From: a virus
Lineage: Duplodnaviria > Heunggongvirae > Uroviricota > Caudoviricetes
Length of the DNA stretch: 4,292 nucleotides
Direction: 5' to 3' (one strand)
IMG/VR virus record: IMGVR_UViG_2671180636_000002
In this document: piece by piece, positions 1 to 4,115 of the stretch
Layout of the letters: each line of letters begins with the position of its first letter
Numbering within the stretch: position 1 is the first letter of the stretch
Position numbers and translations under genes: made by a program
The notes under the pieces: model-generated
Databases searched by the model: none
Seen by the model: only the letters and a program-made list of their open reading frames with translations
Told to the model about the DNA's origin: nothing

Positions 1-13
1 GGTCAACTGATCC

Positions 14-1170
14 TTAACTGATCGGCATTACACCACCGGGACGCGGATTCATATCTTCCAGGTCGCGGCAGTCATTGGAAGAGTAAATTCCCCAGTTGAT
101 CCCGGTGGCGTAGGCTTCAAAACGGGACTTCATATCCCCGCGCAGTAACGCCCCGGCGTTAAATTTGGCGTAATAAACGCCCTGCTTACTTTTTCGTACC
201 AGTCCGGTGTTGATCCGCTGTTCGATGCGGGTCAGATACGGCACCAGTGAATAGTTGATAAATCCCAGCCCCAGCTCTTCGATATTGTTGAAGGTGGCGC
301 GATCGGTGTTCTGCACCATGTGCAACGGCACCCGGAACAGACGACAGATTTCTTCCAGCTGAAACTTGCGGGTTTCCAGGAACTGACTGTCCTCGGCGTT
401 CAGCGCCATCGACTTCCAGTCCAGCCCCATTTCCAGAATCATCGGGCGGTGAGCATTGCCAAGCCCCGTGTGACACTCCTCAAAATCTTTCTTCAGACGC
501 TCGTAAGCATCCGGCGTGAGCTTTTGTTCCGTACGCAACACACCGGATGTCACCGCACCATTACTAAACAACCTGGCACCGTGCTCCTCGGTTGCCGCTG
601 CCAGTGAAATGGCCTCACGCGCATACGCAATGGGATTCAGCCCGACAAGTCCATCCAGCGTCAGGGTGCGCACATGCCAGATTTCATTCTGGGTCAACAC
701 ATCCACGGAACCATCCGGAAACGTCACCTGATAAACCGGCTGCCACTGGCTGTTCAGCTTCGGTTCCACACAGCCCGGATCTATCGGAAGAAGCTCCACC
801 ACTTCTCCCAGTGCCTTTACCTTGTAGGCGTAAAAATTCCCCCGTAGACACAGGCAGACAATAACCAGCTCCCAGAATTCCTGCGGTGTCATGTAGCCAT
901 TAGGTTTTGCCGAAACCAACTTATGCAGTCGTTCATCCACCGCCCGTGTTTTCAGGGTACCGCTGATTTTGTAGAGACTGCAGGGCAGCATACCAACAGA
1001 CTCTGCCAGCACCCTGACGCAAGAATAGACCGCCGTCAGGCGCATGGCCCGCTGGCTACTGATCCGCTTTCCGGTATAGGTGTCGTATGACAGCCCGATA
1101 GCATCAGCAGTTCTGCTGGCGTGGTCACCGGCACATCGCTTTTTCGTTGAAATAATCCCGAAAAGAACAC
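14..1170 (-). CDS. Phage portal protein, HK97-family-like; 5' end unresolved (possible frameshift near the N-terminus)
   Basis: Long minus-strand ORF with stop TAA at 16..14, immediately downstream of terL as expected for a packaging module. The block AMRLTAVYSCVRVLAESVGMLPCSLYK near the N-terminus resembles the conserved N-terminal block of HK97-type portals as I recall it. The track ORF extends to a TTG at 1261, but 1171..1261 in that frame reads [16 protein letters not shown] (not protein-like) and overlaps a well-supported small ORF. There is no ATG/GTG/TTG in the body frame between 1170 and the conserved block. A GTG at 1170..1168 with GGAGG 6 nt upstream lies in a different frame. Confidence 0.85.
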
Positions 1171-1352
1171 TATTTACCTCCGCCGACAGACTGCCGTGTA
1201 CGGTCGAGATATCGCGCCACCAGCCACGACCAGAACAGGCACAGCGCCCCGGCAACAACAAAACCCGCCGGGGGATAAATCAGCCAGGCACCATACGCCA
1301 GCAAAAGCGCACCCAGCACGCCCACCAGAGGCGCGAGAATCAGCATGATCAT
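1170..1352 (-). CDS. Hypothetical small membrane protein (60 aa, two predicted transmembrane helices)
   Basis: ATG at 1352..1350 preceded by GAGG with a 5-nt spacer (minus strand TAACTGAGGTAATTATG), starting 11 nt after the terL stop. Translation [60 protein letters not shown] has two hydrophobic stretches and a charged tail. Codon choice is enteric-like (ctg, gcg, gtg, ggc). Its stop TAG at 1172..1170 overlaps a GTG at 1170..1168 by one base. It exactly fills the terL-portal gap. Confidence 0.55.
1177..1181 (-). promoter_or_regulatory. Shine-Dalgarno-like GGAGG 6 nt upstream of GTG at 1170 (candidate portal initiation site)
   Basis: Minus strand GGCGGAGGTAAATAGTG; the GTG overlaps the TAG stop of the small ORF by one base. 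Confidence 0.4.
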
Positions 1353-1363
1353 AATTACCTCAG

Positions 1364-3097
1364 TTAAAGCGAGCGGATCCCGTAGGACTCAATGTGGTCA
1401 GACAGCGTGTCTTCTTTCTCGTACAGCATGGCTCTGCCAACCGCCATAATCAGCGCAACTGCACCATCGATTTTGTTTTCCGCCTGCTCTTTGACGGGTT
1501 TCACCACATCATCGTTACCCGGCATGTTTTTGCCGACCACGTTGCCGATACACCAGGTCATGATGGGATTGCCGTCATGATGAAAACGTCCCGATTCAAT
1601 CGCTGCTTCCAGCTCTTTCATCGGATCGGACATATTGGTGAAGTTCTGGACGATAGTGACGGGATTCAGGTCTTCATCAGCAAGGTCATGTGACAACCCG
1701 GTCGCCCCGAAGGGGTCGATGGGTGACTCACTGACCGGGCTGATTTTGTTCGCCGCTTTGGCCTCCTCGAGGATGTAGCGATAATCCACCTCCGCACCAT
1801 CGGTAACGGTCAGAACGCCCATTTCCACCCATTTCTGAAAGCGTTCGGCTGTCCGTCGATCTTCATTTTTCTCGACGCTGTACACCGTGTCATACGGTAC
1901 CCAGAAACGCGGGGCCACACTGTAGTAATGCGTTTTACCGTCAATCTCGCGGGTATAAAGTCGCGCCATGCTGTTCATATCCAGCTTACGCGCCAGGTCA
2001 AAGGCCAGAATGCACGGCTGCCCCTCGAACTGCTCAAGGGTCAGTGATTTATCCTCGCAGCTCTGCCAGCTCACCAAGTTGAAATACGCCGAACGCGCCG
2101 ACACCCAGATATTGAGGTGTTTTGTTTTAAAGACGTTTGCCAGACGGGCGTTATTTTTCGCACGCTGCTGCTGACTTAACAAAAATTCGCGATAAACCGA
2201 CACGCCAATATTTGGATTGGCTTTTTCCAGCACCTGCGGGCCGGTCCAGTCGTCACCTTCATCAACGGTATAGATGATCCCGAACAGTTCATCGTTAGGC
2301 ACCGAGCCGTTGAGCATCTCGATGACTTCCCGCCGCTTGTCGTAGCACGGCCCCTCAATGTTGTACCCGGCGGTGGTGATGGCCCACATCAGTGGCTGAC
2401 GTCGCGCCCCCATCCCGGTAAGCATTGTGGTATAAAGCGCATCGGTGGCATGCTCGTGATATTCATCAACCACGGCACAGTGGGGTGATGAACCATCACC
2501 TGGGTTGCCGATCAGCGGTTCAAACCGCGCGCCATCCTCCGGACGGTTCATGTTTGAGGCGTTAACCTCAATCCCGAACGCTTCCGTCAGCATGGGTGTG
2601 CGTTTACACATCAGTCGCGCCGGGCGAAAGACTTCCCACGCCTGTTTCTCTGTCGTGGCACCGGAATACACTTCCGCGCCAAACTCGTTATCACAGGCAA
2701 AACAATACAGGGCAACACCGGCAGAGATTGCTGATTTGCCGTTCTTACGGGGGATTTCGGTGTACACCTCCCGGAAGCGGCGCAACCGGGTGCCTTTATT
2801 GACCCAGCCAAACGCACAGCAGATCACAAATAGCTGCCACGGCTCCAGCGTGATGGGCATCCGTTTGAATGCCCACTCCCCCTTGGTGTGCGGCAACAGC
2901 TGAATAAATTTCGCGGCCCGTTCAGCCAGGTCCTTGTCGAAGCGGTAACGAAACGACTTACTTTTTTCCGCCATCAGGTCATCAAGATGGCGCTGGCAGG
3001 CCTGAATCACAAACTGGCAGGCAACAATCTTTCCGCGCACGACATCCCGGGCATACTGATTTGCAGCATTTACGTTGGGGTAAGATTTCCGGCTCAT
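1364..3097 (-). CDS. terL: Phage terminase large subunit (TerL; ATPase plus nuclease)
   Basis: 577-aa ORF, ATG at 3097..3095, stop TAA at 1366..1364. P-loop-like EIPRKNGKS at about aa 115-122; hydrophobic stretch ending in acidic residues AVVDEYHE (Walker B-like); C-terminal acidic motifs ILAFDLA and [12 protein letters not shown] consistent with an RNase H-like nuclease domain. Size and position directly downstream of a small terminase fit TerL. Confidence 0.92.
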
Positions 3098-3588
3098 GAT
3101 TCGATAATTTTCAGAAACGGGTTAGTGGCTTTCTTCTGCCCCGCCAGGCCAATCAGACGCTGGCGGCTGCTGGGGTCGAGTCCGAGCATTGCCCCCGTGC
3201 TGCTCATCTCGGACTCCTGTTCTTTTTTGGCGGTCAGCTCCGGATTTTTGACCCTGCCGCCCATTGCACCGGTGATGGTGTTGCCCTGTATGGCAATATT
3301 TTTCACGGCACGTCGCCAGAACTCATAGGCCACGCACCACCGCTCAAGTACCGCCAGGTCAGTCACGCACAGCAGGCCCTGACCGCAGAGTTCTTTGGTT
3401 GTCAGTTGCCACATGATCGTGGCGAGAGGGAGATCTTCTTCAGCGAACCACTCTGGTGGCTCAACACCTTTGATGGGCGTAAAAACAGGTTCATCTTTGT
3501 TCAGGGCTCGCTTGCCGGGGTTTCCGGCCAGCGCCTTGCGCGCCGTTGGCTTGGGGCGACGCCCGGAACGCCCCGCCGTTCCAGCCAT
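3094..3588 (-). CDS. terS: Phage terminase small subunit (P27-family-like TerS)
   Basis: N-terminus [36 protein letters not shown] matches the GR.GR.PKPTA.K.L.GNPGKR.LN..EP signature I recall for P27-family small terminases. ATG at 3588..3586 is preceded by AGGAG (3601..3597) with an 8-nt spacer; the GTG at 3597 used by the ORF track overlaps the SD and is unlikely to be the start. Stop TGA at 3096..3094 overlaps the terL ATG (ATGA). Confidence 0.9.
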
Positions 3589-3596
3589 ATGCGGCA

Positions 3597-3601
3597 CTCC
3601 T
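3597..3601 (-). promoter_or_regulatory. Shine-Dalgarno AGGAG for terS
   Basis: Minus strand AACCAGGAGTGCCGCATATG; 8-nt spacer to ATG at 3588. Confidence 0.6.
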
Positions 3602-3627
3602 GGTTAAATTTCATTTTTCGCGGGTAT

Positions 3628-3709: not shown

Positions 3710-4115
3710 TCACCGGATTCGTTCGCGCGCTGTTTTCGCTTTATGGCAGGGNNNNNNNNNNNNNNNNNNNNNNNNNNNNNNNNNNNNNNNNNNNNNNNNN
3801 NNNNNNNNNNNNNNNNNNNNNNNNNNNNNNNNNNNNNNNNNNNNNNNNNNNNNNNNNNNNNNNNNNNNNNNNNNNNNNNNNNNNNNNNNNNNNNNNNNNN
3901 NNNNNNNNNNNNNNNNNNNNNNNNNNNNNNNNNNNNNNNNNNNNNNNNNNNNNNNNNNNNNNNNNNNNNNNNNNNNNNNNNNNNNNNNNNNNNNNNNNNN
4001 NNNNNNNNNNNNNNNNNNNNNNNNCACCGCGATGTTTATCGCAGTAACCCGAACTGTCTGTGGTTGTACCTGCACATCCACGCTTACGGCAGGCACGTGG
4101 GATTAGTGATGGCAT
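3710..4115 (-). CDS. Phage HNH endonuclease (packaging-associated), interior masked by N-run
   Basis: ATG at 4115..4113 preceded by GAGG (4124..4121) with a 5-nt spacer. Visible N-terminus MPSLIPRACRKRGCAGTTTDSSGYCDKHRG is Cys/His-rich and zinc-finger-like, typical of terminase-associated HNH proteins. Visible C-terminus ...PCHKAKTARERIR with stop TGA at 3712..3710 resembles the second half of an HNH motif. The two ends are in different frames across the N-run, so the coordinates are the span, not a verified ORF. Confidence 0.7.
3752..4024. other. Run of 273 N (masked or unsequenced gap)
   Basis: Directly visible in the sequence; falls inside the putative HNH endonuclease gene. Confidence 1.

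Follow-up and report, generated by a model that had tools for sequence, protein, structure and literature searches.

A portal gene at the 3′ end of a phage packaging module raises the question of how, if at all, its protein is made. In the window analysed here, a stretch of 4,292 nt, the best initiation site of this gene opens a reading frame that is not the frame of the portal body, and the initial annotation had listed four explanations: an indel introduced by sequencing, a prophage in decay whose portal is truly frameshifted, slippage of the ribosome, or non-canonical initiation. We find that the portal is almost certainly a genuine pseudogene of a decaying Shigella sonnei prophage with two lesions, a one-base deletion at codon 22 and an IS4 insertion after codon 380.

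The packaging module and the start of the portal gene

All genes in the window lie on the minus strand, and they follow the order HNH, TerS, TerL, YmfR and portal. In the coding direction, the first genes are an Rz-like lysis protein, of which the window covers the C-terminal part (4292-4158), and an HNH endonuclease that starts at 4115; a stretch of 273 N (3752-4024) masks most of the latter. The window is a gapped draft sequence, and this gap of 273 N compares with 218 nt in other assemblies. The small terminase subunit of the P27 family (3094..3597; PF05119, Terminase_4) is 167 aa long when read from GTG 3597, or 164 aa when read from ATG 3588. The large terminase subunit (1364..3097) is intact, has 577 aa and matches Pfam PF03354 and PF20441; this exact protein was found in 4305 blocks of the searched collection. 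Next come an intact 60-aa ORF (1170..1352), whose homologs are annotated as membrane protein or YmfR, and a portal-like ORF (1261..14) that runs from TTG 1261 to a stop at 16-14. Rfam and tRNA scans of the window gave no match.

Megablast comparisons recovered the module at 88-95% identity in phiP27, Salmonella phage ST64B and the Shigella phages SfI, SfII and SfIV. The same module was present in about 1600 complete E. coli genomes, where its genes are annotated in turn as "terminase large subunit", "YmfR" and "phage portal protein". The portal of the window is located in the packaging module after TerL and YmfR, in the order seen in phiP27, ST64B and E. coli prophages. We assign the window to an S. 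sonnei prophage of the phiP27/ST64B type, with an HK97-family portal, of which it represents the packaging module.

The 5′ end of the portal gene was located by comparison with its homologs. A GTG at 1170 shares 1 nt with the TAG that ends the ymfR-like ORF upstream, and a GGAGG Shine-Dalgarno (SD) sequence (1177..1181, minus strand), which is invariant in all aligned homologs, lies 6 nt upstream of it, inside the 3′ end of ymfR. The portal coding sequences of phiP27, E. coli A36 and E. coli ATCC 11775, as well as beeE of the K-12 prophage e14, are annotated from the last base of the ymfR stop (TA-G-TG). In the ST64B record, the start is annotated one codon upstream, at an ATA, and the downstream reading is identical. 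The N-termini of the homologous portals align with the frame of GTG 1170 in the window (MFFSGLFQRK) and continue with (E/D)A-IGLSYDTYTGK. They are not colinear with the TTG frame, the result that the initial annotation had named as refuting its reading, and this outcome supports its main point. GTG 1170 is the authentic start of the portal gene, and together with 20 native codons it forms the authentic 5′ end (1108..1170, minus strand).

Two overlapping frames follow from this start in the window. The frame of GTG 1170 is ended by a premature TGA (1036..1038, minus strand), and the product of this ORF (1170..1036) is 44 aa long, with 21 native and 23 out-of-frame residues. The frame of the portal body has no stop codon between TTG 1261 and 16-14, and has TTG codons at 1261, 1258 and 1255. 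It also contains an ATG at 1045-1043 (MRLTAVYSCV), which corresponds to native Met43 and is used by most gene callers, giving a 343-aa product. The initial annotation had described the GTG with its GGAGG and the end of its frame at TGA 1038..1036 as they are seen in the sequence and in the ORF list; its statement that the body frame has no canonical start before the AVYSCV block has to be corrected, since this ATG lies there.

A one-base deletion at codon 22

When the phiP27 portal was compared with the window by tblastn, residues 1-21 were aligned in frame -3 (1170..1108) and residues ~23-380 in frame -2, down to position 32, with 94% amino acid identity over 376 residues. The homology switches frame between residues 21 and 23, and the portal body, codons ~23-380 of a 413-aa portal, occupies 31..1106 of the minus strand in the -1 frame relative to the start. 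An alignment of five DNA sequences, the window and four intact homologs, contained one gap column, found only in the window, at 1109/1108. The homologs read GA(A/G)CTGGCGGA(G/T)GCT at this site and the window reads GAACTG-CTGATGCT. CTG-GCT (Leu21-Ala22) was the ancestral sequence and has become CTG-CT: of the GG pair, one base is gone and G1108 alone is left (deletion site 1107..1109, minus strand). A -1 shift, equivalent to a 1-nt deletion, had been proposed as necessary to join the two frames, and each intact homolog indeed has exactly one base more and encodes its portal in a single frame. The intact local allele, GAACTGGCNGATGCT, was also found in nine IMG/VR phage contigs.

Putting one G back yields ...PAELADAIGLSYD..., a junction identical to that of the ST64B and e14 BeeE proteins, and gives a colinear portal of 380 codons. 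This conceptually repaired translation matched the profiles of the HK97 portal family, with 359.2 bits for PF04860 (cutoff 39.1; residues 47-373) and 263.6 bits for TIGR01537, portal_HK97 (cutoff 112.05; residues 39-379). As it stands in the window, the gene is not an uninterrupted ORF, with the frame switch at residues 21/23, the stop at 1038-1036 and the end of homology at residue 380 of 413.

An A5 run had been proposed as the indel or slippage site and had been placed at 1141-1145. The run actually lies at 1140-1144 (minus strand), and its surroundings, CGAAAAAG, are identical in the window and the four intact homologs. Because the run is unchanged in these homologs, it was ruled out as the site of the deletion, which lies about 32 nt downstream at the GG pair (1107-1109).

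The same deletion recurs in other sequences of the module. Searches with the exact sequences of the 577-aa terminase and the 343-aa portal product found 20 loci, which come from 18 distinct NCBI assemblies, and exact-pattern matching in IMG/VR added six further contigs. The identical deletion allele was present in 26 of these 26 loci, and 20 of them showed 100% identity with the window across some 3.7 kb. Several of the 18 assemblies are records of multi-megabase length whose accessions are of chromosome style; one of them, CP000038.1, is S. sonnei Ss046 (PMC5447701, where Yang et al. 2005 is given as the source of the Ss046 genome). At an identity of at least 99%, the window allele was absent among about 1370 complete E. 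coli genomes matching a 126-nt region around the site, and each of the 30 full-length E. coli matches listed covers 127 nt, against 126 nt in the query. Because the deletion is identical across 24 independent sequences and absent from the E. coli matches, it is, judged by sequence comparison, a genuine mutation rather than a sequencing error, carried by all S. sonnei assemblies examined, and the allele is lineage-specific. Scans of contigs from one genome per species found no exact match for either the deletion allele or the repaired allele and were uninformative, presumably because the Genome Taxonomy Database (GTDB) merges Shigella into E. coli and the representative genome does not carry this prophage allele.

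An IS4 insertion near the 3′ end

A second lesion of the portal, absent from the initial annotation, is located at the other end of the gene. Homology to all portals ends at 31/30, and the remaining 30 nt of the window (1..30, minus strand) are the terminal 30 nt of IS4, so that the portal sequence breaks off after 380 of its 413 codons. Past this junction the homologs read ...GGTGGTGATGTCTATCTC, and the window reads ...GGTGGTG/TAATGCCGATCAGTTAAGGATCAGTTGACC, where the slash marks the junction. The insertion replaces the last 33 portal residues with VMPIS, followed by the stop at 14-16. The terminal 30-mer was found with 100% identity in 1854 E. coli genomes, in up to 32 copies per genome, and it sits 36 nt outside insG, which is annotated as "IS4-like element IS4 family transposase". 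In S. sonnei loci that reach beyond the portal, the next gene has Nterm_IS4 and DDE_Tnp_1 domains.

The insertion is flanked by a target duplication. IS4 is expected to produce a direct duplication of about 11-13 bp. The 12-bp target site GTCCCGGTGGTG (31..42, minus strand) is found at both IS4 junctions, the left one in the window (GTCCCGGTGGTG/TAATGCC) and the right one in contig L031 (GGCATTA/GTCCCGGTGGTGATGTC; right-junction sequence CTGACTGGCATTAGTCCCGGTGGTGATGTCTATC). The same IS4 junction is found in every NCBI locus that extends to the 3′ end of the portal. Beyond it, three loci continue with raiA-pheL-pheA, and in most of the other extending S. sonnei loci IS4 is cut by an IS3-family element, which is followed by bamE. 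No head or tail genes directly follow IS4 in the S. sonnei loci extending past the portal, and capsid genes are not adjacent to the locus in the complete S. sonnei genomes examined.

Contig L031 was the only match when viral contigs were scanned with the IS4 right-junction pattern. It has the same frameshift and, past the right end of IS4, a complete head and tail gene set; such genes may survive elsewhere in some genomes. L031 also has an N at 2819, a 386-bp segment that is present twice with three differences, and an IS4 without its first 68 nt, and it looks like a chimeric scaffold. Taken at face value, the contig would mean that the frameshift dates from, or was once present in, a more complete prophage, which is uncertain. 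A relative order of the two lesions, with the frameshift before IS4, had been considered from L031 and was dropped in view of its chimeric appearance.

Fate of the broken gene and comparison with known systems

In the decaying S. sonnei prophage, ribosomes loading at GGAGG and GTG 1170 would read the 21 native and 23 out-of-frame codons and stop at TGA 1038-1036, leaving the portal body out of frame and without its last 33 codons. A functional portal would not be produced. The deletion was probably a spontaneous replication error, and it may have persisted because the prophage was defective by then and the S. sonnei clone is young. At most, reinitiation at ATG 1045 would give the 343-aa fragment, truncated at both the N- and the C-terminus. 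Some reinitiation of this kind, yielding a fragment without evident function, is plausible because the TGA is only 5 nt downstream of the ATG (ATGCGCCTGA).

A different reading starts from the same fragment, namely that the broken locus is still expressed by an unusual route, either reinitiation at ATG 1045 or rare -1 slippage, and that the fragment is kept for a benefit to the host, such as hindering the assembly of superinfecting relatives. The 343-aa product would hold the whole Pfam portal domain; we consider a maintained beneficial fragment very unlikely. TerS, TerL, YmfR and the lysis genes are intact in most assemblies, which might be taken as a sign that the prophage has kept some function. 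With nearly all copies of the locus 100% identical in nucleotide sequence, too little time for decay explains these intact genes more simply.

The divergence of the gene from its relatives also bears on the age of its inactivation. Nei-Gojobori estimates for the repaired gene gave a dN/dS of 0.04 against phiP27 and of 0.10-0.11 against ST64B and ATCC 11775; the gene therefore evolved under strong purifying selection through almost all of this divergence. The three substitutions adjoining the deletion are synonymous or common to ST64B. Together, these observations suggest that the inactivation is recent. Four replacements, A13V, D/E162N, R233C and P365S, fall at sites that are invariant in four comparators (D or E at 162), and could reflect relaxed constraint after inactivation, as seen in this small comparison set. 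S. sonnei is reportedly a young clone, and the near-absence of further decay fits such an age.

Recoding would rescue a full-length portal from the two frames, either by a programmed -1 frameshift or by transcriptional slippage, for example at the A5 run at 1140-1144. The geometry is right for it: the body frame is open across the whole 135-nt zero-frame ORF, a -1 slip anywhere from 1170 to 1039 would fuse the two frames, and the A5 run (CGA AAA AGC) lies inside the overlap. However, a scan of 1170..1036 for zero-frame heptamers of the form X XXY YYZ found none, the only homopolymers being T4 (1164-1161) and A5 (1144-1140), and A5 is far below the roughly 9 nt or longer that support transcriptional slippage. 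A slip at A5 would moreover turn 13 conserved residues (SDVPVTTPAELAD) into junk. The four aligned relatives share the A5 run and encode their portal in a single frame. No two-frame layout was seen among these four relatives and K-12 beeE, with the 30 listed E. coli matches all one base longer, and the layout of the window is derived and confined to a single lineage. The IS4 truncation precludes a full-length portal regardless. Slippage, which the initial annotation had offered as one option, is on this evidence highly improbable.

The idea that the genome has an intact portal 5′ end and that the deletion is a sequencing or assembly artefact gains some credit from the gapped draft with its run of N, and from related assemblies in which private 1-nt indels occur in the module. 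These single-assembly differences are nearly all 1-nt indels elsewhere, in TerS, TerL and ymfR, for example at 3228, 2967, 2882, 2500 and 1274, with one substitution, at 1409, in a single locus (L014), and none is common to different assemblies, which is the behaviour of sequencing errors. In contrast, the lesion at codon 22 is constant across loci, including the Ss046 reference chromosome, and lies within a GG dinucleotide rather than a long homopolymer. The probability left for an artefact is negligible, and of the options listed at the outset it is the frameshifted portal in a decaying prophage that is borne out. Just as hard to credit is a single-frame portal initiated at TTG 1261, 1258 or 1255, which has in its favour an uninterrupted ORF from TTG 1261 to 14 and one deposited annotation, the original 414-aa product of Ss046 from TTG 1258, and against it that, as previously noted, the upstream sequence offers these codons no purine-rich SD and the stretch is part of the ymfR coding sequence, which is read in another frame, that its non-protein-like translation has no counterpart in any homolog, and that about 50 open codons are a chance expectation in GC-rich sequence.

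A frameshifted pseudogene has consequences for the annotation of the locus, which is at present inconsistent, with 414 aa from a spurious TTG in Ss046 and a 343-aa "portal" from ATG 1045 in many other records. The proper annotation is a frameshifted, IS4-interrupted pseudogene with its authentic start at GTG 1170. The common 1-bp deletion and the IS4 junction are possible simple markers of the S. sonnei lineage.

Among known systems, the portals of phiP27 (P27p38, NP_543090.1) and ST64B (sb4), and the PGAP-annotated portals beside ymfR in many E. coli prophages, are among the closest to the window copy. They share with it the order of TerS, TerL, a 60-aa YmfR-like protein and portal, the same GTG overlapping the ymfR TAG by 1 nt and the same GGAGG, with 88-95% DNA identity to the window and, for phiP27, 94% identity of the body protein. 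These portals are single ORFs of 413-414 codons, whereas the window copy is one G short and broken by IS4 at codon 380. The tail assembly chaperones G/GT of lambda are made by programmed -1 frameshifting at a conserved slippery heptamer, and their two-frame layout is conserved across relatives. The window is like lambda G/GT in having two overlapping frames related by -1, and unlike it in having no heptamer and in having relatives that use one frame.

IS-driven pseudogenisation is typical of Shigella genomes, and the window fits this pattern with its IS4 and 12-bp duplication, the nested IS elements downstream and the rearrangement from strain to strain, none of which is unusual. The pseudogene is a routine one in an IS-rich genome, a case of ordinary prophage decay with no new mechanism involved. 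The closest precedent is beeE (b1151), a dead remnant in the defective K-12 cryptic prophage e14. It belongs to the same portal family and has the same GTG start overlapping ymfR, and the N-terminus of e14 BeeE is identical to that of the repaired window over 30 residues except for A13V. The two remnants differ in how they were broken: beeE stays in frame over about 135 codons before a deletion or fusion cuts it short, with a product of 157 aa, whereas the S. sonnei gene has an early 1-bp frameshift and an IS4 insertion and retains nearly the whole portal body.

Invariance of the portal deletion and apparent errors in single assemblies

The 1-nt deletion in the portal gene was invariant, unlike the private 1-nt indels of individual assemblies, which were found in the genes for the small and large terminase subunits (TerS and TerL) and in ymfR of five Shigella sonnei loci (L009, L011, L019, L023 and L025). 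These private indels, located at window-equivalent positions 3618, 1274, 3228/3227, 2997, 2967, 2882 and 2500, break the TerS, TerL and ymfR open reading frames in the gene calls of the affected assemblies, and they look like assembly errors. The window itself carries a run of 273 N at 3752-4024, within the gene for an HNH endonuclease, which lies upstream of TerS. S. sonnei assemblies that are identical elsewhere have just 218 nt at this place (3129-3346 of locus L006). The 273 N thus do not preserve the true length, as a mask would, but fill a scaffold gap whose size was estimated.

Reinitiation geometry and annotation of the portal fragment

An in-frame ATG at 1045, the native Met43, lies 5 nt upstream of the out-of-frame stop TGA at 1038-1036 (window 1036-1045, ATGCGCCTGA). 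This geometry could permit termination-reinitiation, the product of which would be a 343-aa fragment. In most pipelines, the fragment from ATG 1045 carries the annotation 'phage portal protein'. Pseudogene annotation was inconsistent between S. sonnei Ss046 (CP000038.1, L012 5840-7084) and the other loci: a 414-aa product from TTG 1258 is called in Ss046, a 343-aa product from ATG 1045 in the majority of the other assemblies, and none in some. Among database records, OR844959.1, a 1764-bp GenBank entry named 'Enterococcus phage Efm 3-10', is 97.1% identical to the enterobacterial ymfR and portal region; the record has probably been mislabelled or comes from contamination.

IS4 insertion and the sequence beyond it

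IS4 is inserted in the portal gene following codon 380, and its terminal 30 nt occupy the left edge of the window (1-30). The insertion target, GTCCCGGTGGTG (window 42-31), is 12 bp long, and in contig L031 it is duplicated at the opposite end of IS4. Downstream of the portal gene, the sequence following IS4 was not uniform among S. sonnei assemblies (L009, L010 and L021 versus L006-L008, L012 and L016-L020). In some, raiA-pheL-pheA adjoins an intact IS4 encoding a 442-aa transposase; in others, an IS3-family element cuts IS4 at about codon 374-380 and bamE comes next. This variation points to IS-mediated deletion or inversion later than the original insertion.

Contig L031 (1-13286, IMGVR_UViG_2663762996_000003) has the same portal frameshift as the window and also reads through into an intact portal 3' end, followed by complete prohead protease, major capsid and tape-measure genes. 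Its position 2819 is an N, the first 68 nt are missing from its IS4, and it carries two copies of a 386-bp segment that have 3 differences between them; it looks like a chimeric scaffold. The contig gives a hint that some genome still carries the distal half of the prophage.

Amino-acid replacements relative to intact portal proteins

Four replacements at positions conserved in the intact comparators were found in the portal sequence: A13V (codon start at 1134), D/E162N (688), R233C (475) and P365S (79). They possibly reflect relaxed constraint following inactivation. Residue 365 in contig L031 is the ancestral Pro. In the four intact comparators, homologous portal genes of related phages and prophages, residues 13, 233 and 365 are invariant, and residue 162 is conservatively varied as D or E.
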